Positions 5,172-26,774 of a DNA stretch of 56,525 bases are shown piece after piece. Below the pieces are notes generated by a model. That model ran no database searches. It saw only the letters and a list, made by a program, of their open reading frames with translations, and was not told the origin of the DNA. Numbering within the stretch: position 1 is the stretch's first letter; each line of letters opens with the position of its first letter. A program made the translations under genes and the position numbers. Source of the stretch: an uncultured bacterium (GTDB taxonomy: Bacteria > Hydrothermota > Hydrothermia > WGAB01); assembly GCA_964422065.1 (NCBI GenBank), contig CAYQZW010000003.1, positions 1-56,525 on the forward strand, in the 5' to 3' direction.

Positions 5172-6069
5172 AGAAGCGAAGGACGAGTATCGGACAGCAT
5201 TGCGACGCGCCAATAACGCCACGGTGTTCCACACCGTGGAATGGCTGGAATGCATCCACCAGGCCTTGAATGGCCGGGTTTATATCGGGTTTGCAGAGGA
5301 CTTCGCAATCCCCCTCTTCGTCAAAGGCAAACCCCCGTTTCGCCGGGTCTTCTCTCTGCCGTATGACACTTACGGCGGCCCGTTGGTCCGACGAAACCAG
5401 ACCGTCTCCATCGACGCCCTGTATGCCCCCTTGGATTGGGTACGGATCGTGGATTACCGAACGGTCGTGTCTGAGGCCAAGCGATTCCGGGCCCTCCAGT
5501 GGGTGACCCACGTGATCTATCTCCGCGGCGGAATGGGGGAGGTCCAGGATCGCTATACCGGCTCCCTCAAAAAGGCCCTCAAACAAGCCAAGCGCCGGGG
5601 CCTTGACCTGGAGACCCTCCGGGATCCCAGCGAACTCCGCGTGTTCTATCAACTCTACCTTCAGACCGCCAAACGCAACAAGTTGCCGGTCTACCCCTAC
5701 CGACTGTTTCGGGAGATCTTTGAGCGGATGGTGCCAAAGGGGTATGCCACCTTTTACCTCGCGCGCCACGAGTTGGAGGCCGTGGCCGGCCTTCTGGTCT
5801 TAAAAGACCACAACATGGCCCTGGCCTGGGTGGATGGCTATAAGGAAGAGGCGCTGCCCCTGCGCCCGATGAACGCCCTGATCGACAAGTCGATCCGGGA
5901 CGCCGCCCGGCTCCGACTGAACGTCTATAACCTGGGCAGTACCCCGACGAACCGGCCGGGCATCGTGAAGTTCAAGGAGAGTTTTGGAGCGGTGACGTAC
6001 CACTTCACGGTCTTTGAACACCTGCCGGTCCACCAGGCCCTGGCGCGGTGGATCTTGCGGAAGGGCTAA
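5146..6069 (+). CDS. FemAB-like GNAT-fold acyl/aminoacyl-transferase
   Basis: TVFHTVEWL, SLPYDTYGG, KKALKQAKRRGL and the C-terminal G..KFKESFGA motif typical of FemAB/BioF2-like GNATs. Confidence 0.75.
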   Translation: MNLRIVPLEEAKDEYRTALRRANNATVFHTVEWLECIHQALNGRVYIGFAEDFAIPLFVKGKPPFRRVFSLPYDTYGGPLVRRNQTVSIDALYAPLDWVRIVDYRTVVSEAKRFRALQWVTHVIYLRGGMGEVQDRYTGSLKKALKQAKRRGLDLETLRDPSELRVFYQLYLQTAKRNKLPVYPYRLFREIFERMVPKGYATFYLARHELEAVAGLLVLKDHNMALAWVDGYKEEALPLRPMNALIDKSIRDAARLRLNVYNLGSTPTNRPGIVKFKESFGAVTYHFTVFEHLPVHQALARWILRKG

Positions 6070-6074
6070 AGCCC

Positions 6075-6533
6075 TCAGGCGCCTTGGGACCGGAGTCGTT
6101 CCAGGGCCTTTTGCAACACGGCCCGCTCTGTCTTGTAGGAGAGCCGTGCCAGGGCCTCTTCGGCGGGCAACCAGAGGACTTCATCCACCTCAAAGTCGTG
6201 CCGGGAAGGGTCCCCGCCCGTGCAGACCATGAGGTAGAAGTACACGATTTTGTGATGTCGGACCTTCTGGCCCGAGTCGTCTGGCCAGACGAACCAATAG
6301 TCAATTTTGTCAATCAGACCTTGAGGTTGGACTTCCAGGCCGGTCTCTTCCCGGACCTCGCGGACGGCGGCCTGTTCCGGGGACTCCCCTTTTTCAATCA
6401 GGCCCTTGGGCAGTGCGAAGCGGTCGCCCACCCGAATCACTGCGATCTCCAGCCCGGTCGGCCCTTTCCGATAAACGACACCTCCGGCCGAGAACTCCAG
6501 GACCGTAGGGATCTTCTTTTTCGGCCCAGCCAT
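6075..6533 (-). CDS. NUDIX hydrolase (Ap4A hydrolase/MutT-like)
   Basis: FSAGGVV and Nudix box PKGLIEKGESPEQAAVREVREETG. Start placed at ATG 6533. Confidence 0.9.
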   Translation of the reverse strand: MAGPKKKIPTVLEFSAGGVVYRKGPTGLEIAVIRVGDRFALPKGLIEKGESPEQAAVREVREETGLEVQPQGLIDKIDYWFVWPDDSGQKVRHHKIVYFYLMVCTGGDPSRHDFEVDEVLWLPAEEALARLSYKTERAVLQKALERLRSQGA

Positions 6534-6595
6534 CCCCAAAATTCTATGGCTCAACAGGCGCCCCGGTGTCCCCCGGGCCAGCGGTCTCCTGTTCC

Positions 6596-6624
6596 TTGAC
6601 TCCCCGGAGGAAGGCCCGTAAAAC
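6596..6624 (+). promoter_or_regulatory. Sigma70-like promoter of umuDC (probably leaderless)
   Basis: TTGACT-17 nt-TAAAAC, then 7 nt to ATG 6632. Confidence 0.55.
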
Positions 6625-6631
6625 ACTGGGG

Positions 6632-7033
6632 ATGCCACGAGGTACGAAACCTGAAGACAGCCTGCGGTTCATGGGATTTGCGTCGCCCGCAGAGGACTTT
6701 GCGGAGCGGCCGTTAGACCTTCATCGCCTGCTGGTTCCTCGTCCCTCCGCAACCTTCTTTTTTCGGGCGGAGGGCAGTGGATTGGAGCCTTCTGGGATCC
6801 ATGCGGGCGACCTCCTGGTCGTGGATCGGTCAGTTCGGCCCCGGACCGGCGATATCGTGATCGCCGTTGTGGACGGTGAGTTCGTGGTTCGACGACTGAG
6901 ACGACGCGGCAAGACCGTGTTCCTGGAAACGGACGACCCCAGCATCAAGCCCATCCGACGGTCCGTGGGGGAGGAAGGCCTGGAGATCTGGGGAGTGGTC
7001 CTCCATGTCATCCACTCGTTCCGGAAGACATAA
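6632..7033 (+). CDS. umuD: UmuD-family (S24) Pol V subunit with substituted catalytic dyad; alternative start ATG 6671
   Basis: GFASPAEDF, PSATFFFRAEG, GDLLVVDRS, GDIVIAVVDGEF, WGVVLHVIH; directly upstream of umuC. Confidence 0.9.
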   Translation: MPRGTKPEDSLRFMGFASPAEDFAERPLDLHRLLVPRPSATFFFRAEGSGLEPSGIHAGDLLVVDRSVRPRTGDIVIAVVDGEFVVRRLRRRGKTVFLETDDPSIKPIRRSVGEEGLEIWGVVLHVIHSFRKT

Positions 7034-8321
7034 ATTCGTTCTTATTGACGCCGACAACTTCTATGCCTCGTGTGAGCGGGTGTTTCAGCCGCATCTCCGG
7101 GGCAAGCCGGTCGTGGTCCTTTCCAACAACGACGGCTGCGTGATCGCACGGTCTGCAGAAGCCAAGGCCCTCGGAATCCCCATGGGTGCCCCGGCCCACC
7201 TCTATGAGCCGGTCTTCCAGAAATACGGCGTGGTCACCCTTTCCTCCAACTTCACCCTCTATGCCGACATGTCCCATCGGATGTTTGACGTCATCCGCCA
7301 GTTCACACCCTGGATGGAGATCTATTCCATCGACGAGGTCTTCCTGTGGGTGGATTCGGCAGAATGGAAGAGCGGGAAAGCCCTGGGCCGGGCGATTCGG
7401 CAAACCATCCGGCAGTGGATTGGTATCCCCGTAACCGTGGGGCTCGCCCGAACAAAGACCCTGACCAAGGTCGCGGTCGAGGAAGCCAAGCAGAACCCCA
7501 GATGGAAAGGTGTGCTGGATCTGGAAGAAGAGGAGGGGGTTCGGGAGGCCCTGCTCCGGACGTTGCCCGTGGAGGAGGTCTGGGGGATCGGGCCCCGGCT
7601 CGCCCGGTTCCTGAGGGCCCAGGGGATCGAGACGGCCCACGACCTGCTCCAGCGCCCTCAGGCGTGGGTCGAGAAGCACCTCACGGTCCAGGGCCTCCGC
7701 CTCTGGCTCGAACTGGCCGGGACCCCGTGTTACCCCTTGATCACGGCCCCGCCCCTCCACAAGAGTCTCCGGACCTCCCGCACCTTCCCGCGAGATCTCT
7801 TTGAATTTGAGAAACTCCGGGAGGCCGTGGCGACCTTTGTTGCACGTACTGCCGAGAAACTGCGGGCCGAAAAGGCCGTCGCCGGCCGGGTTGGGGTCTT
7901 CATCATGACCAACCCCCACAAGCCCGAGGCCCCTCAATACCGCGCGGAGGAGTTTCGGAAACTCCCACAACCCACAGACTCCACCCTCGTCCTCCAGGAG
8001 GTGGCCCTGGAACTTCTGGAAGAACTCTACCGGCCCGGATACGGCTACAAACGGGCCGGCGTGGTGCTGGCCGACCTTTATCCGCGATCGGAATACCCCC
8101 GTTCCCTGTTCCCCTTGCCCTATGATGAAGCCAAACACCGCCAGTTAATGAAGGCCATGGACCTCCTGAACTGGCATTACGGGCAAGACACGTTGCGGCT
8201 GGCCGCTTCAGGCTTGGAACACACCTGGCGGATGCGCCAGCGCCATCGATCGCCCCGATTCACCACCCACTGGGACGAAATCCCGATTGCAAGCACCCGT
8301 GTTCCTGCCCATCGTACATAA
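7005..8321 (+). CDS. umuC: Y-family DNA polymerase V catalytic subunit
   Basis: LIDADNFYASCE, VVLSNNDGCVIARS, YSIDE, VWGIG, YKRAGV and C-terminal WRMRQRHRSPRFTT (DUF4113-like). Confidence 0.95.
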   Translation: MSSTRSGRHKFVLIDADNFYASCERVFQPHLRGKPVVVLSNNDGCVIARSAEAKALGIPMGAPAHLYEPVFQKYGVVTLSSNFTLYADMSHRMFDVIRQFTPWMEIYSIDEVFLWVDSAEWKSGKALGRAIRQTIRQWIGIPVTVGLARTKTLTKVAVEEAKQNPRWKGVLDLEEEEGVREALLRTLPVEEVWGIGPRLARFLRAQGIETAHDLLQRPQAWVEKHLTVQGLRLWLELAGTPCYPLITAPPLHKSLRTSRTFPRDLFEFEKLREAVATFVARTAEKLRAEKAVAGRVGVFIMTNPHKPEAPQYRAEEFRKLPQPTDSTLVLQEVALELLEELYRPGYGYKRAGVVLADLYPRSEYPRSLFPLPYDEAKHRQLMKAMDLLNWHYGQDTLRLAASGLEHTWRMRQRHRSPRFTTHWDEIPIASTRVPAHRT

Positions 8322-8367
8322 CGCCAATCTTTCATTGGGATCCATGGGGCGAGGAGAGTCGAGGCAA

Positions 8368-9876
8368 TCACGGGGAAGAAAGGTTTTTCTCCCTGCCCCA
8401 GAGGCGTTGGAGTTCAGGGATTTGGGCGATCGTGCCGAGTCCCACGAAGACCCCAACAAAGATCCCGCCAGAGACCAGAAGGTCATAGAGGGGGTGCTCG
8501 AGATGAAACGCCACCAGGGGAACCGCAGCAGCCAGGGTCACGCCGATCAAGCGTCCTCCCCATCCCACCATCGTTTGAGGCATCGGGAACTCGCGGGCCA
8601 GCGCGCCAGTTAGGAGCAGGGCCTGCGCGGTGCTCGCGAGGGAAGTTGCTAAGGCCAGGGCCGGGAACCCCAGGACCGGCGCGAGGCTCAGGGCGATAAC
8701 CAGGTTGACGCCGGCGCCGAGGGCAAACGCGAAGTTCGGCACCCGGATCTCTTTCCGGGCAAAGAAGACGTTCAACAAGACGCGGGAGAGTGCAAACGGG
8801 ACGATATTCAGTGCATAAAAGAGCAGGGCCTGCGCGGTATAAAAGACATCGGGTCCCCCAAAGGCGCCTCGTCGGTACAGCACCGCCACGATCGGCTCCG
8901 CCCGGAGCATCAGGAAGACGGTCGTTGGGAACGTCAAGAACAGTGCCCCACGAACCGCCGACCAGAGTTCTTCTCGTAGGGCTTCTGGAGCATCCACCTG
9001 CCGGCTGATCTCAGGCAACGAGACAGCAGAGACCCCAACGCCGAAGAGGGCAATCGGCAGGTGCATCAACCGAAAGGCATAGTTGAGGTACGAGATTGCA
9101 CCCTCCCGAAGGAAGGAGGCGATCAGGGTGTTCACGAAGAGAGTAAACCGGGTTAGGGCAGTATTGAAGACGACTGGAACGAAGAGTTTCTGGATACTTC
9201 GTAGCCCTGGGTGTTGGGGATCCGGTCGTGCCCAACGGATCCCGGTCTTGCGGACCGCCGGGACCTGGGCCAGGATCTGGAGGAGCCCGCCGACCAGGAC
9301 ACCGATCCCCACGAAAAACAGCGCGACGTGCGGGGTAACCTTTTGCCAGGCGGCAAGGCCGATGAACAACAGGACGCCGAGGTTGAAAAAGGCGGGGGCC
9401 AGTGCCGGCAAAAAGAAGATCCGAAAGGCGTTCAAAACCCCCATCAGCAGTGCCGAAATGCCGACCAGGATGAGGTAAGGGAAGAGGAGACGGGTCATCT
9501 GGACCGTGAATTCGAACTTGACCGGGATACTTCGGAACCCGTATGCGGTCAGGGTTACCCACACCGGCGCCAGCAGGATGCCCAATAGGGCCATCAGGGC
9601 CCCGAGGATCAGGATCCCCCAGAAGACAGTGGAGAAGAGACGCTCGGGACGCTCTCTGCGCTCAACCGATTGAACAAACACCGGGACAAACGCCGTCTGG
9701 ATCGCATTCTCCGCCAGAAGATCGCGGAGATAGTTCGGAATCCGGAAGGCGACATAGAAGACATCGGAAAACCGGCCAGCGCCGAGCAAGAAGGCGATCC
9801 CCGCCTCACGGAGGAGCCCCAGGACGCGGCTAATCAGGGTGGCGGAAGCGAAGGAAAAGACCGAACGATACCGCAC
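8368..9876 (-). CDS. murJ: Lipid II flippase MurJ/MviN
   Basis: SRVLGLLRE, AFRIPNYLRDLLAE, YAFRLMHLPIALFG; many TM helices. Confidence 0.93.
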   Translation of the reverse strand: MRYRSVFSFASATLISRVLGLLREAGIAFLLGAGRFSDVFYVAFRIPNYLRDLLAENAIQTAFVPVFVQSVERRERPERLFSTVFWGILILGALMALLGILLAPVWVTLTAYGFRSIPVKFEFTVQMTRLLFPYLILVGISALLMGVLNAFRIFFLPALAPAFFNLGVLLFIGLAAWQKVTPHVALFFVGIGVLVGGLLQILAQVPAVRKTGIRWARPDPQHPGLRSIQKLFVPVVFNTALTRFTLFVNTLIASFLREGAISYLNYAFRLMHLPIALFGVGVSAVSLPEISRQVDAPEALREELWSAVRGALFLTFPTTVFLMLRAEPIVAVLYRRGAFGGPDVFYTAQALLFYALNIVPFALSRVLLNVFFARKEIRVPNFAFALGAGVNLVIALSLAPVLGFPALALATSLASTAQALLLTGALAREFPMPQTMVGWGGRLIGVTLAAAVPLVAFHLEHPLYDLLVSGGIFVGVFVGLGTIAQIPELQRLWGREKNLSSP

Positions 9877-10289: not shown

Positions 10290-12665
10290 ATGCACAGGCT
10301 GAGTCCGATCCGGGCCCTCTTCGGGACCCTTGGCCTTTGGCTACTCACGGAAGTTGGCCTGGCCGGGACATGGATCCAGCATACCAAGGCCCAGTTCCAG
10401 ACCGGGACCCTGTCTCAGGTCCAGGCCACCTGGCCCAGTGGTGAAGACGACGGCTTCCTCCGCCTGGCCCTCCCCGTCGTGAACGGGACCTTTGACGAGC
10501 AGGACAATCCCCTGGAGGGCTGGACCGATGAGAGTGAGGGGGACGGGACCCGCGTGATCGAGGCCGTCTCCGCTGGGGGCCGTCCCCATGTCCTCCACCT
10601 CTATGCGACTTACGGCACCGTGACCACCCGAGCACGGGTCTCTCAGACCTTTACCCATGGCCTGGACTTCCTCCGCCGCTTCAACGTCGAAGTCTATCCC
10701 ATCAGTTCCGAGATCTTCCACAACGGTTACATCGTGTTCCATGTCTTTGCTTATGACACAAACGATAACAGCCTGATCCAGGGCGGTTGGATCCCTTACC
10801 TCTTGAGTGGGGACTGGACTCCTACCACCCACGACTGGCGTCCTCAGACCGTTGCAGACCGCTGGAACATTTATCGATTCGACTTGAAGGATGACATCAT
10901 CGAGCGCCTTCAGCCGGGCTATACCTGGTCGGACGTTGCCAAGGTTAAGATCCTATTCTCCGTTGAAGCCACTGCTCTGGGATCAAGCTACGGTGCCTAT
11001 TTTGATGCGGTCTGGGCGGCACCCTTTATAGACGACAATTTCAACGACAACGCGGTGGATTCCACGAAATGGCGTGTCTACGAGAATATCTACCATGTGT
11101 CCGAGCAGGGCCAGCAGGTCCGATTCTGGGGCTATGACGCGAGCGATACCCTCTATTCGTCCATCGACCGTGAACGGGACACCGTCCAAAACGCCTCTTG
11201 TGAAGCCGCGGCACGGATGCGCCCGCGTTATATGGAAAATGAAGAGGGTCAGGAATTTGAAATCGGCTTCTATAGCCCTGTGTCCGGGAAACTCCTGATC
11301 CTCCGAGCCCATCAGATGCCGAACAATGGCGGCTTCTATTACGTTGCAGCTTACGATGGTATATCTTGGAGTTCCAGCCAGATCGGAACCTATACGCTCC
11401 TCTCCTCGAACAAGTTCTACACCTGGCGAATCCTTTATGACGCCCCGACTCAGTGGTTTGAGGCTTGGGTAGATGGCCGGATGGTCGGACGCATCGAGAA
11501 CTTCGTCATGGATACCTACTACCCATACATCGCCGCCACCGACGCGGACAACGATCCCAACGATTCCTTAGATTGCCAGGTGGACGACGTCATGTTCTTT
11601 GATTTCAGTCAGGGTGCCTGGAACGCCCGGAACCCAGAGAACGGCGAGTATATCACTGCTCCACAGGACCGGGGGCATCCGGCCGATTTTCGGCGGCTGC
11701 GCTGGGCCGGCACAACACCGCCGGGCACCGAAATCAAGATGCAATTCCGGAGCGGCTGGACCCAGGCCGAACTCGAGGCCTCTCCCTGGTACGGCCCACA
11801 GGGCCCGAACACGTTTTACACCACTCCAGGCCAAACGATTTACCCTTTCCACGACGGACATCGGTGGTTCCAGGTCCGGGTCTTGTTCAGCACCACCGAT
11901 TCGACCCAGACGCCGACCCTCGACTCTCTGATCGTCGAATACGACTCTATGGCAGTGATTCAGGCCGACAGCGGCTGGGCTTCCTTGGGCCCAGGTGTAA
12001 CCGCGGTGGTCCACTATGACGACATGGACAGGCGGAGCCTGGTCGCAGTCTTCTCTAACCCTATTGCCCTTGCAGACGAACCAGCGTCCTTCATGTCTTC
12101 TGTGCATAACACTCCCCCTACGGGGATCATCGGCGGCATCGAACGGTGGTGGCGACTGGATTTTGCTGGCTCGTTCGACAGCGTGGCACTAACCTTTTTC
12201 TACCAGAACGACGATGTACCCCCTGGGCTTGGGGAAGAGACCCTCGGACTCTGGCACAGGAGTTCGCTATCCCAGCCATGGAGTTATCTCGACCCTGTGG
12301 GTCGGGATACCGCAGAGAACTGGGTCCGGATCACTGGTGTAATGGACCTGGGGGATTGGACATTGGGACCCTCTACCGCCACGGGGGTGTCCGAACCGTC
12401 CATCCCTTCCCTCGATGCTCCACATGTCCGGGTCACCCGGCAGGCCATGAATATAGAATTCACACTGGCGACTAAAGATCGAGTTCGAGTCATTCTTTAC
12501 GATGTCACCGGGCGGCACATTGCTACCCTCTTAGACCAGCAGTTCAGGCCCGGGTTCCACCGCATAACCCTTCAAAACCCTGTACGTCACCAAGCAGGCG
12601 TCTTCTTCTTGCGAATTCATGTGAGGGGTGTAACTCGCTTCATCAAATTCGTGCAATTTCCATAG
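10290..12665 (+). CDS. Secreted multidomain beta-rich protein with T9SS/FlgD-type C-terminal domain
   Basis: SD AGGAGG, signal peptide, Trp/Tyr/Asp-rich beta domains, TGVSE linker, then ILYDVTGRHIATL...GVFFLRI. Confidence 0.8.
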   Translation: MHRLSPIRALFGTLGLWLLTEVGLAGTWIQHTKAQFQTGTLSQVQATWPSGEDDGFLRLALPVVNGTFDEQDNPLEGWTDESEGDGTRVIEAVSAGGRPHVLHLYATYGTVTTRARVSQTFTHGLDFLRRFNVEVYPISSEIFHNGYIVFHVFAYDTNDNSLIQGGWIPYLLSGDWTPTTHDWRPQTVADRWNIYRFDLKDDIIERLQPGYTWSDVAKVKILFSVEATALGSSYGAYFDAVWAAPFIDDNFNDNAVDSTKWRVYENIYHVSEQGQQVRFWGYDASDTLYSSIDRERDTVQNASCEAAARMRPRYMENEEGQEFEIGFYSPVSGKLLILRAHQMPNNGGFYYVAAYDGISWSSSQIGTYTLLSSNKFYTWRILYDAPTQWFEAWVDGRMVGRIENFVMDTYYPYIAATDADNDPNDSLDCQVDDVMFFDFSQGAWNARNPENGEYITAPQDRGHPADFRRLRWAGTTPPGTEIKMQFRSGWTQAELEASPWYGPQGPNTFYTTPGQTIYPFHDGHRWFQVRVLFSTTDSTQTPTLDSLIVEYDSMAVIQADSGWASLGPGVTAVVHYDDMDRRSLVAVFSNPIALADEPASFMSSVHNTPPTGIIGGIERWWRLDFAGSFDSVALTFFYQNDDVPPGLGEETLGLWHRSSLSQPWSYLDPVGRDTAENWVRITGVMDLGDWTLGPSTATGVSEPSIPSLDAPHVRVTRQAMNIEFTLATKDRVRVILYDVTGRHIATLLDQQFRPGFHRITLQNPVRHQAGVFFLRIHVRGVTRFIKFVQFP

Positions 12666-24146: not shown

Positions 24147-24908
24147 TTAGGGGCCTGCAAAAGCGGCGTTGATTATATGGGCGAAGGATTGGGATTGCAA
24201 GGAAGCGCCACCCACCAGGGCGCCGTCGATATCGGGCATTCGTGTGAGATCGGTGACATTTTCCGGCTTCACACTCCCGCCGTACAGGATCGAGACTTCT
24301 GCTGCGTCGGCGCCCCACTCTTTCAGAACATCCCGGATAAAGGCGTGGACCGCCTGAGCGGTCTCTGGTGTCGCAGTTTTTCCCGTTCCAATCGCCCAGA
24401 CGGGCTCATAGGCCAGAACGACCTTGGACATCTCCTCGGGCTTTACGAGTTTCAGGGCGTTCAGAAGTTGGGTTTGGACTACCGACTCGGTCTCCCCTCG
24501 CTCCCGTTCTTCCAGTCTCTCACCAACGCATAGGACTGGAGTCATGCCATGGTCCAGCACCGCACGGACTTTTTGCGCGATGAAGTCATCGGTTTCGCCA
24601 AACAGATGCCGGCGTTCCGAGTGTCCAACGATGACGAAATCCACCCCGAGGTCTTTCAACATGGTGACGGAAATCTCACCGGTAAATGCCCCTTTCGGTT
24701 CAGGATGGCAATTTTGAGCACCAAGAAGCATCGACGAGCCTTCTTTGAGGGACTGGAGTGCAGCAAGGGCGGTAAACGGAGGCGCCACTCCCCAGAGATA
24801 TGGACCGGTGTAGTCTTTGAGAAGGTCCAGCAGTTCCCGGACTGTGACCTCTGCCTCGGTCACAGTCTTATGCATTTTCCAGTTGCCCAGAATCAGGCAG
24901 CGCCTCAT
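24147..24908 (-). CDS. tpiA: Triosephosphate isomerase
   Basis: [34 protein letters not shown]. Confidence 0.98.
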
Positions 24909-25927
24909 GACTTGCTCGGAGATTCGGCCTTCTCTTCTGGGGCCAACGCTTCCTTGATCTTCATCTCGATCTTGTTCCGGAGATCTGCATCCTCCTCCAG
25001 GAGCCGGCGCACTTTCTCGAGGCCCTGTCCCAGTTGCTGGCCTGCAAAGGAATACCAGGAACCGGACTTCTGAATAATCCCCAGTTGTAGACCCAGATCG
25101 ATCAGTTCCCCTTCTCGGGAGATCCCTTTGCCGTAAATGATGTCGAACTCGGCTTCGCGGAACGGTGGGGCGAGTTTGTTCTTGACGATCTTGACTCGCA
25201 CGCGGTTCCCCACCGCCTGGTCACCGCTCTTGAGGGTGGCGATCCGTCGGATATCCAGTCGGACCGAGGCGTGGAACTTGAGGGCCAGCCCTCCCGGTGT
25301 GGTCTCCGGGCTCCCGAACATGACCCCTATCTTGTGCCGGACCTGGTTGATGAAGATCGCGCACGTCTTGGACTTTGACAGGACTCCGACGAGTTTCCGC
25401 ATGGCTTTAGCCATGAGTCGAGCCTGAAGCCCTACTTGTGTATCCGACATCTCACCGGTGATCTCCGCCTGGGGTACGAGTGCTGCGACCGAGTCTACCA
25501 CGATAAGATCCACCGCACCGCTCCGAACCAAGGTTTCGGCGATATCCATGGCCTGTTCCCCGGACTCCGGCTGGGAGATCAGGAGGTTATCGAGGTCTAC
25601 GCCCAGGGCGCGGGCATAATTCGGATCCAGGGCATGTTCTGCGTCGATGAAGGCAGCAATGCCGCCTTGTTTCTGGGCTTCTGCGATCGCATGGAGGGCC
25701 AGGGTCGTCTTCCCTGAGGCCTCGGGGCCATAGATTTCGACGATCCGGCCGCGTGGATAGCCGCCGACCCCCAAGGCCAGATCCAAGGCGATCGAACCGG
25801 TCGGGATGACCGGCACCCGGATCGCCGTTTTTGCACCCAGGCGCATGATCGCGCCTTTGCCGTGTTGCTTCTCGATTTGCTTTAACGCAATCTCGAGACT
25901 TTTGAGCCGATCATCTGCTGGCATCAT
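24905..25927 (-). CDS. recA: Recombinase A
   Basis: [42 protein letters not shown]. Confidence 0.98.
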
Positions 25928-26493
25928 CCCACCTCTCGATCAATTTTTGGGGGGGTCACCCCAACCTGTCCTTGATACTTCCCTTTGCGGTCCCCGTAGC
26001 TCACCCGGCACACCTCATCTGCCTCGAGGAAGATCACTTGAGCGATCCCCTCGTTCGCATAAATCTTCGCCGGTAACGGGGTGGTATTCGAAATCTCAAT
26101 CGTCAAATGCCCCTCCCATTCGGGCTCTAATGGCGTGATATTGACCACAATCCCACACCGCGCATAGGTCGATTTCCCTAAACAGATCCCCATGACCCCA
26201 CGGGGAATCCGAAAGTACTCGACGCTGCGCGCCAAACAGAAGGAGTTCGGCGGAATCACACAGACCTCGCCCTTGAAGTCGACCAGGCTCTTGGGATCGA
26301 AGTTCTTGGGGTCCACCACCGAACTAAAAACGTCGGTAAAGATCTTGAATTCATCGGCAATGCGGATGTCGTAGCCATAAGAAGAGAGTCCATAGGAGAT
26401 TTTGCCCTCTCGGACGAGCCGGGGTTCAAAGGGCTCGATCATGCGGTATTTCCGCGCCATTTCTTCAATCCAACGATCGTTCTTGAGTCCCAT
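25924..26493 (-). CDS. dcd: dCTP deaminase
   Basis: [42 protein letters not shown]. Start ATG 26493. Confidence 0.95.
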
Positions 26494-26500
26494 AGCGGGA

Positions 26501-26529
26501 ATTTTAGGGGACGTCAGAAAGGGATGCAA
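26501..26529 (-). promoter_or_regulatory. Sigma70-like promoter of the dcd-recA-tpiA-secG-rplU operon (leaderless)
   Basis: Minus strand TTGCAT-17-TAAAAT-7 nt-ATG. Confidence 0.65.
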
Positions 26530-26774
26530 TAAGGAGAGATCTGTGAAGAGGCAACTTCCTGCAACGGACAACCCATTCGGGGGGACGTTCCCTAAAAGGG
26601 GCCCCTGAAAACCGTCCACAATTGAACATGTCCACAATTGTCGAAGTGCGGAGGGGATTGAGGACAGGCAGGGGTTGAGACGAGAACCGTTTAAAGGGTG
26701 TCGAGTGCCGATGCAAACCCCTTGATCACTGCTTTCGCCTCTCGCCCAGGACCTATACAGGGTATCCCTCCCCG

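Follow-up and report, generated by a model that had tools for sequence, protein, structure and literature searches.

A conserved UmuD homologue without the Ser-Lys dyad or the scissile bond of UmuD: a candidate cleavage-independent subunit of a Pol V-type polymerase

According to the textbooks, the last safety catch that holds back mutagenic DNA synthesis in bacteria is the cutting of UmuD triggered by RecA*. We analyzed an umuDC operon from which this catch appears to be missing. The operon lies in a 56,525-nucleotide stretch of a metagenome bin that is 88% complete (assembly GCA_964422065.1, contig CAYQZW010000003.1, positions 1-56,525); the whole stretch is referred to as the window, and its numbering is used throughout. 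The umuD-like gene occupies positions 6632-7033 of the + strand and consists of 133 codons and a stop (protein P0001, 6632-7030). Its end overlaps by 29 nucleotides with umuC, located at 7005-8321 on the same strand (438 codons and a stop; protein P0002, 7005-8318). P0001 has lost both residues of the catalytic dyad as well as the bond that canonical UmuD cleaves; the loss of the dyad is shared with related genomes, and the gene is maintained by selection next to an intact umuC. Our preferred reading, to which we assign a probability of roughly 0.6, is that P0001 serves as an accessory subunit of a DNA polymerase V (Pol V) type enzyme and neither needs proteolytic activation nor is able to undergo it.

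The family of the protein is not in doubt. P0001 matches Pfam Peptidase_S24 (PF00717) with an E-value of 6e-20 and scores above the cut-off of the NCBIfam model NF007621, 'Pol V autoproteolytic subunit' (123.8 bits vs 110). It is an S24 domain only: there is no N-terminal DNA-binding domain in its 133 residues, and the LexA model TIGR00498 gives 57.6 bits against a cut-off of 110.95. The nearest solved chains found with HMMER are those of E. coli UmuD, namely 8gmt_B (E-value 6e-26), 1umu, 1i4v and 1ay9. An AlphaFold2 model of P0001 was obtained with a mean predicted local distance difference test (pLDDT) score of 87, and the top Foldseek fold match of this model is E. coli UmuD' (1ay9, template modelling score 0.88 by target). 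Residues 1-14 of the model have pLDDT values of 51-56 and are predicted to be flexible.

The HMMER alignment with E. coli UmuD is ungapped across the relevant stretches. It places 'raeGSGLepsGI' on 'kasGDSMidgGI', where G50 occupies the position of the nucleophile Ser60 and S49 that of Asp59, and 'gefVVRRL' on 'gefTVKKL', where R87 occupies the position of the general base Lys97. Residues F13-M14-G15-F16 are aligned on Q23-C24-G25-F26, and Met14-Gly15 stands for the scissile Cys24-Gly25. The Ser-Lys dyad is absent from P0001 (Gly50, codon GGA at 6779-6781, +; Arg87, codon CGA at 6890-6892, +), and the Ala/Cys-Gly scissile bond, here Met-Gly, is absent too. An earlier sequence-only reading of this DNA had matched the same columns by hand, had noticed Met-Gly at the cleavage site (ATG 6671-6673) in an otherwise intact fold, and had judged that the standard activation switch looked lost or replaced. 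The alignment and the model bear this out in each respect: nucleophile, base and cleavage site are all gone. To judge from these replacements, self-cleavage of P0001 to UmuD' cannot occur by known chemistry. Ser49 was considered as a replacement nucleophile and rejected: this residue is Thr in five of six cluster members and Asp, Asn, Ala, Gly or Glu in other clades without the dyad, and the Lys97 equivalent is gone as well. As P0001 passes the threshold of NF007621, annotation pipelines will assign to such proteins an activity that they cannot have, and the label 'autoproteolytic' is misleading for dyad-less UmuDs.

Forty-one related genomes were examined. The homologue from a genome of the same genus (G001, locus L002; 86% identity) has the same Gly and Arg. 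The double loss was also found in a genome of another family (G009, locus L003; 63% identity), with GSGLE and VVRRF at the two sites, and in three genomes of a third family (G006, locus L004, and G035 and G023; 39-40% identity), with EEDFE and FVIGRI. Altogether the loss of the dyad extends to three further genera of the class. Gly at the Ser60 position is shared by L002, L003 and P0003-P0005. The umuD homologue is situated directly 5' of an intact umuC in L002-L006, and the UmuCs encoded there are 37-85% identical to P0002. Close relatives might instead have kept GDSM and VKxL, a possibility raised in the sequence-only reading; the comparison came out negative, which favours that reading.

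Comparison of the window umuD with that of G001 gave 0.081 non-synonymous (pN) and 0.666 synonymous (pS) differences per site over the whole gene, a pN/pS of 0.12. The dN/dS ratio after Jukes-Cantor correction is 0.05, with dS saturated. The umuD-like gene is under strong purifying selection. As a check on the accuracy of the sequence, contigs of two additional runs from a single study were compared with it; the window itself may stem from a third run. These contigs cover 6500-6681, without any difference and with codon 14 included, 6774-7046 (one contig) and 6796-7100 (one contig). Codon 87 is covered by both of the latter and codon 50 by one of them (6774-7046), and no difference was seen at either codon. 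Six variant places were found, five of them synonymous and the sixth I77V (codons read by eye). This agreement makes it unlikely that the loss of the dyad is a sequencing error.

Comparison with the same-genus genome also located the translation start. Codons 1-14 show 9.0 synonymous differences over 10.0 sites and 6.0 non-synonymous differences over 32.0 sites (pS 0.90, pN 0.19). In the 36 nucleotides 5' of ATG 6632, read in the same frame, the pattern is reversed (pS 0.10, pN 0.35), and farther 5' the alignment with G001 requires one-nucleotide gaps. The coding-type pattern from codon 1, together with the reverse pattern 5' of it, indicates that coding begins at ATG 6632. The first 14 codons (MPRGTKPEDSLRFM, 6632-6673, +) form an N-terminal extension that ends in Met14 (ATG 6671-6673), the residue at the former P1 position, i.e. 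before the scissile bond. They are followed by the arm motif GFASPAEDFAERPLDL (residues 15-30; 6674-6721, +), which is conserved among homologues without the dyad. Met14 itself is not conserved: G001 has CTC (Leu) as codon 14, and five of six members of the 90%-identity cluster carry Leu. It was proposed in the sequence-only reading that translation from ATG 6671 could yield UmuD' directly, or that a choice between the two starts has replaced the switch, and conservation of the Met in homologues was suggested as a check. Since Met14 is not conserved, neither proposal can be the mechanism of the lineage, the more so as the coding signature begins at 6632. Met14 seems to be one of the many residues that a disused cleavage site will accept. 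The public gene call for the contig (P0274, 120 residues) starts at Met14, 13 codons 3' of the start supported by comparison; we regard this as the choice of the gene caller.

The leaderless-type start at 6632 suggested in the same reading fared better, being conserved in the sister genome. Common to the window and L002 are TTGAC(T/A), a 17-nucleotide spacer of differing sequence, TAAAAC, a further seven nucleotides and the ATG. In the window this corresponds to a putative -35 hexamer TTGACT at 6596-6601 (+; TTGACA in the same-genus genome) and a putative -10 hexamer TAAAAC at 6619-6624 (+), seven nucleotides 5' of the ATG, a geometry of the leaderless type. The sequence CCCGTAAAACA around the putative -10 hexamer is identical in the two genomes. 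There is no conserved Shine-Dalgarno sequence: GGAGGAAGG of the window corresponds to GCGAACGGG in L002, and the GGAGG of the window is not kept. The combined promoter pattern has one exact occurrence in the window, with 0.26 expected at one mismatch or fewer. The umuD transcript is probably leaderless or nearly so, a proposal drawn solely from conservation with one sister genome. No inverted repeats of seven or more nucleotides were found in 6480-6680, hence there is no operator candidate in that region.

The polymerase partner appears intact. P0002 has full-length IMS (123 bits), IMS_C and DUF4113 (75.6 bits at 380-428) matches, and its best NCBIfam match is UmuC (NF002955), yet under the cut-off (355.9 vs 431). 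The catalytic motifs DADNFY and SIDE are present, in agreement with the sequence-only reading, and D15, D110 and E111 are invariant in an alignment of 56 UmuC rows. P0002 is the sole Y-family polymerase found in the window's genome, which is 88% complete. After the TTxW motif there are 15 residues in the window's UmuC (G000), 13 in G001 and 40 in G009, and 6-10 in most others examined. We do not claim that longer UmuC tails track dyad-less UmuDs: L004-L006 have nine such residues, and four UmuCs with catalytically intact partners have 15-22.

A complex of UmuC with two copies of P0001 was modelled with our own alignments; this case lies outside the calibration set. The model reached an interaction prediction score from aligned errors (ipSAE) of 0.83, against 0.00 for the best control. 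Of the solved complexes 58 of 80 attained this mark, and of the mismatched pairs 2 of 110 did. Agreement between the runs extends to at least 79% of contacts, and the pLDDT of the partners is at least 78. No UmuD-UmuC complex is present among the solved chains matched by P0001 with HMMER, so the score is unlikely to be a recall of a deposited structure. In the predicted interface, UmuC residues 418-423 and 426-434 lie on residues 42-51 and 77-87 of one UmuD copy, Gly50 and Arg87 included. The UmuC C-terminal tail (residues 416-438; 8250-8318, +) is thereby predicted to sit on the former active-site cleft of that copy. The confident contacts with UmuC also comprise residues 18-28 of the other UmuD copy. 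On the UmuC side, residue 109 is listed among others, beside the catalytic D110 and E111; the UmuD copy touching it is not specified by the output.

An arrangement of this kind is described for E. coli in the available excerpts of two papers. In the AlphaFold model of Pol V from E. coli, UmuC pairs through its C-terminus with one UmuD' (PMC11791011, PMC12926913), and the carboxylate of that terminus is near UmuD' S36, T71 and K73, i.e. S60, T95 and K97 of the full-length protein, the protease site (PMC11791011). [quoted passage not shown] A UmuC tail seated in the old active site would give a reason for the bias towards Arg at the Lys97 position: Arg could keep the charge that binds the tail while ending catalysis.

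Based on these observations we infer the following course of events. Translation of P0001 begins at ATG 6632, on a transcript with probably little or no leader, and the product would carry a short flexible extension of 14 residues before the conserved GF(A/P)SPA arm. A UmuD dimer would bind UmuC asymmetrically, as in current models of E. coli UmuD'2C. One copy would hold UmuC's C-terminal tail in the former protease cleft, where Arg87 would retain the positive charge of Lys97 and Gly50 would remove the nucleophile; the other copy would lay its arm on the polymerase. With the RecA-triggered cut gone, control of mutagenic synthesis would have to rest on transcription and on RecA-dependent assembly of the mutasome through UmuC. 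The gene for RecA, the expected third component of the Pol V mutasome, is located at 24905-25927 (-; PF00154, 457.6 bits at 25118-25903).

Where damage might be sensed differs between the families. Profile searches of the window's genome at its 88% completeness detected recA and one S24 domain, that of umuD itself, and no LexA. Searches of the same genome with the XRE-S24 proteins of G001 and G009 returned nothing, or umuD alone. Three genomes of the same family, 94-100% complete, were found to have no S24 domain. In G009 and G006 a divergent gene of 205-220 codons, encoding HTH_3 and S24 domains with Ser and Lys intact, stands beside the dyad-less umuD-umuC pair (L003:1988-2650, +; L004:783-1400, -), and by coordinates such repressor genes are also found at G035:C13:3838-4209 and G023:C24:402-776. 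Palindromes of the form TTATCCA-N3-4-TGGATTAA, present in the intergenic DNA of L004 (G006) and L005 (G035), are candidate operators. In these two sister families the sensing protease would be next door: the self-cleaving sensor may have been placed in a local repressor, with UmuD left as a plain subunit. In the window's genus a NUDIX gene adjoins umuDC in place of the repressor.

The sequence-only reading had treated the window's UmuD as a singular case. The loss of the dyad stands, and the case proves less exceptional than was supposed there, dyad-less ('dead') UmuDs being common in metagenomes. A word-indexed set of 121 sequences, i.e. the query and 120 matches, contains 55 with Ser and Lys, 19 with Ser and Arg and 47 without Ser. 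Arg is present at the Lys column in 45 of these 47, and many of the 19 Ser/Arg sequences begin 1-3 residues before Gly, in the manner of HumD of phage P1. The second set consisted of the best 150 representatives, at 50% identity, of an exhaustive HMMER search. Its single-domain members (n=126) comprise Ser/Lys 99, both residues lost 23, Ser only 3 and Lys only 1, and Arg replaces Lys in all 23 doubly dead proteins.

A FastTree phylogeny was built from 249 rows and 112 columns after removal of the trait columns. Its resolution is poor, 129 of the 239 forks being open. The window falls into one group with seven further rows, every one of them dead (support 94). At least three losses of the dyad are forced by well-supported branches, and parsimony counts 17. 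Other features change together with the dyad. At P1, 143 of 148 live homologues have Ala or Cys, against 26 of the 68 dead ones, and the median predicted length before Gly is 17 residues in dead forms vs 34 in live ones (27 vs 37 when restricted to representatives). Because the rows are related and the positions of the predicted starts uncertain, tests of this syndrome overstate its significance. The arm GF(A/P)SPA..(F/Y).E.PLDL is kept in dead forms, and G15, F16, S18, P19, A20, E25, P27, L28, D29 and L30 are invariant among 10 dead homologues. Overall, these alignments indicate that dead UmuDs are common in metagenomes and have arisen repeatedly in uncultured bacteria. On this ground we advance, tentatively and at somewhat less than even odds, a wider proposal: non-catalytic UmuDs may constitute a class that is widespread and has evolved repeatedly, its protease site having been retired to a docking cleft for the UmuC tail (Lys to Arg, nucleophile lost, P1 relaxed), giving a Pol V without proteolytic licence.

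The closest known relatives differ from P0001 in instructive ways. E. coli UmuD/UmuD' (MEROPS S24) has the same fold, GF(P/A)SPA arm and operon order with umuC, resembles P0001 in the predicted interface of tail and arm, and is about 45% identical over residues 13-131 (by eye, from the HMMER alignment). Unlike it, P0001 has no Ser60, Lys97 or Cys/Ala-Gly site, its extension is 14 residues long instead of 24, and no LexA was found in its genome. HumD of phage P1 (NF051876) functions with no cleavage step, as is proposed for P0001, and its start, MGFPSP, is resembled by Met14-Gly15-Phe16 of the window; to that extent the precedent cited in the sequence-only reading is apt. HumD, however, is phage-borne, starts at the Gly25 equivalent and keeps DS..IKR at the dyad positions, whereas P0001 is encoded on the chromosome, still has an extension, is devoid of the dyad and reaches 79.3 bits with the HumD model, the cut-off being 120.

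Two engineered proteins offer a further comparison, as described in the excerpts of PMC5342242. UmuD 3A (T14A L17A F18A) is non-cleavable and counts as a mimic of UmuD'. UmuD 18 (delta 1-17), with seven residues before Gly25, remains uncleaved, has free arms and supports low but detectable ultraviolet (UV) mutagenesis. As is predicted for P0001, these proteins are uncleaved; their arms are free of the globular domain, and they are partly UmuD'-like in action. Unlike P0001 they are laboratory constructs in which the active site is intact or altered by S60A only; P0001 is natural and conserved, and both of its dyad residues are replaced. The sister families, with a helix-turn-helix (HTH) and live S24 protein beside umuDC, resemble UmuDAb of Acinetobacter, the non-canonical LexA of Bacteroidetes and FddR of Francisella (PMC8565304, PMC13148647). 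The excerpts of these papers do not describe the UmuD partners there as non-catalytic, and the window's genus differs from them in having no adjacent repressor.

Several points weigh against a cleavage-independent role of P0001. According to excerpts of the E. coli studies, full-length uncleavable UmuD S60A greatly lowers UV mutagenesis (PMC3901139), and UmuD 8 S60A, with 17 residues before Gly25, is like uncleaved UmuD and has the same effect (PMC5342242). The 14-residue extension of the window falls between the permissive length of seven and the non-permissive length of 17 in these engineered proteins. The complex with UmuC is a prediction only, made outside the calibration set; it places residues 1-17 without confidence and is silent on whether the extension blocks the polymerase. 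The homologue sets were ranked by likeness to a dead query and therefore overstate prevalence: the best 80 species-representative genome loci (umuC lies within the fetched stretch in 67 of them) have Ser/Lys in 77, loss of both residues in one, a Prochlorococcaceae bin, and loss of Lys only in two. At 88% completeness a LexA or XRE-S24 gene of the window's genome could be unassembled. The same-genus genome G001 does encode a 299-residue HTH and S24 protein away from the umuDC locus, on contig 19 (L108:1982-2881). Finally, a scan of 6000-8700 for the sigma-70 consensus called no promoter, which we attribute to the putative -10 hexamer ending in C instead of the usual T. As to the L108 protein itself, its Ser is in place (DDSM) and its Lys column seems to hold Arg (FLRRV); it lies among unconserved open reading frames (ORFs) and is possibly a prophage repressor.

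The E. coli data could also be taken to mean that P0001 is a permanent brake, which acts like full-length E. coli UmuD and holds UmuC, perhaps together with the replisome, in a non-mutagenic mode of checkpoint or accurate bypass. The sharp reduction of UV mutagenesis by both S60A proteins would fit such a brake, a damage checkpoint involves full-length UmuD together with UmuC (excerpts of PMC3901139 and PMC5342242), and the extension is translated and under some constraint (pN 0.19 vs pS 0.90). We nevertheless consider this unlikely. Behind a brake that is never released, a catalytic UmuC would serve no purpose, and yet D15, D110 and E111 do not vary and four genera keep UmuC, at 37-85% identity, next to a dead UmuD. 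At the arm anchor positions of E. coli (T14, L17 and F18) this protein has G4, P7 and E8 (by counting positions from Gly15, with no alignment), the former cleft is remodelled, and the shorter arms of dead homologues fit release and not restraint. It is more improbable that this genome alone produces a form born cleaved, by starting also or instead at ATG 6671 and removing Met to leave the exact N-terminus of UmuD'. The MGFPSP start of phage P1 HumD, metagenomic homologues of 109-117 residues that begin MGFASP (P0033, P0040, P0073) and the gene call P0274 speak for it; the CTC codon in the sister genome, Leu in five of six cluster members, the coding signature from 6632, the lack of a Shine-Dalgarno sequence 5' of 6671 and a HumD model score of 79.3 vs 120 speak against it.

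[quoted passage not shown] The sister families have a live S24 repressor beside dead umuD, G009 retains Ala-Gly, and tandem UmuD-UmuD proteins, described below, join a degenerate arm-bearing copy to a live one in 20 of 24 cases. For P0001 we think this a very poor prospect: a second S24 domain was looked for in the window's genome (88% complete) without success, and the P1 residues, Met or Leu here and Thr in G006, are poor fits to an Ala/Cys-Gly site. Gene decay or an assembly error would account for the loss of catalytic residues in a metagenome bin, yet is hardly credible when the frame is open with a pN/pS of 0.12, the same substitutions recur in several genomes and genera, independent contigs agree and the fold is predicted with a pLDDT of 87.

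A conserved natural lineage that keeps umuDC without the cleavage catch, with many more such cases in metagenomes, implies that there are other ways of licensing Pol V. On the wider proposal of a recurrent non-catalytic class, mutagenic translesion synthesis in this LexA-less lineage would be fully uncoupled from SOS-type proteolysis, and the sister lineages, together with the fusions of dead and live copies, would represent a split of the sensing protease and the polymerase-binding subunit into separate domains or genes. These proteins are natural test cases for what the uncleaved arm blocks, for why Lys97 is so often replaced by Arg, and for the active site as a socket for the UmuC tail. Full-text searches, which most subscription journals lay outside, turned up no account of natural dyad-less UmuD homologues; such proteins could appear in the alignments that supplement PMC6511836, PMC12926913 and PMC11791011, and they may have been described before.

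The tandem UmuD-UmuD fusions, 220-290 residues long, make up 24 of the best 150 representatives (P0123-P0129, P0131, P0132, P0134, P0136, P0137, P0140, P0145, P0147, P0153, P0163, P0165, P0168, P0177, P0187, P0198, P0230 and P0246). Ser and Lys are kept in the C-terminal copy in 23 of the 24, and the N-terminal copy, which bears the (A/C/T)-G-F arm, is missing one or both of these residues in 21; in 20 of the proteins the arm-bearing copy is degenerate and its fusion partner live. Such a fusion looks like a covalent asymmetric UmuD dimer. The UmuD-like gene of the Prochlorococcaceae bin (L029:4001-4354) has GDAM and VLRR at the dyad positions, and no umuC match was found in its 8.3-kb locus. 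A search of plasmids with the dead 120-residue P0098 returned canonical umuD genes only, at about 40-47% identity.

The neighbours of umuDC in the window are housekeeping genes: those for an ABC ATPase and a FemAB/GNAT-like protein, a divergent NUDIX gene and murJ. The DNA 5' of umuD is alignable with that of the same-genus genome. Taken together, these observations place the operon on the chromosome, with no recognisable mobile element. An ORF of 237 codons lies upstream of recA, and its end overlaps the recA start (the two spanning 24905-26637, -); recA therefore seems to be without a promoter region of its own. A 791-codon ORF at 10290-12665 belongs to no obvious family on reading and possibly encodes a secreted or surface protein.

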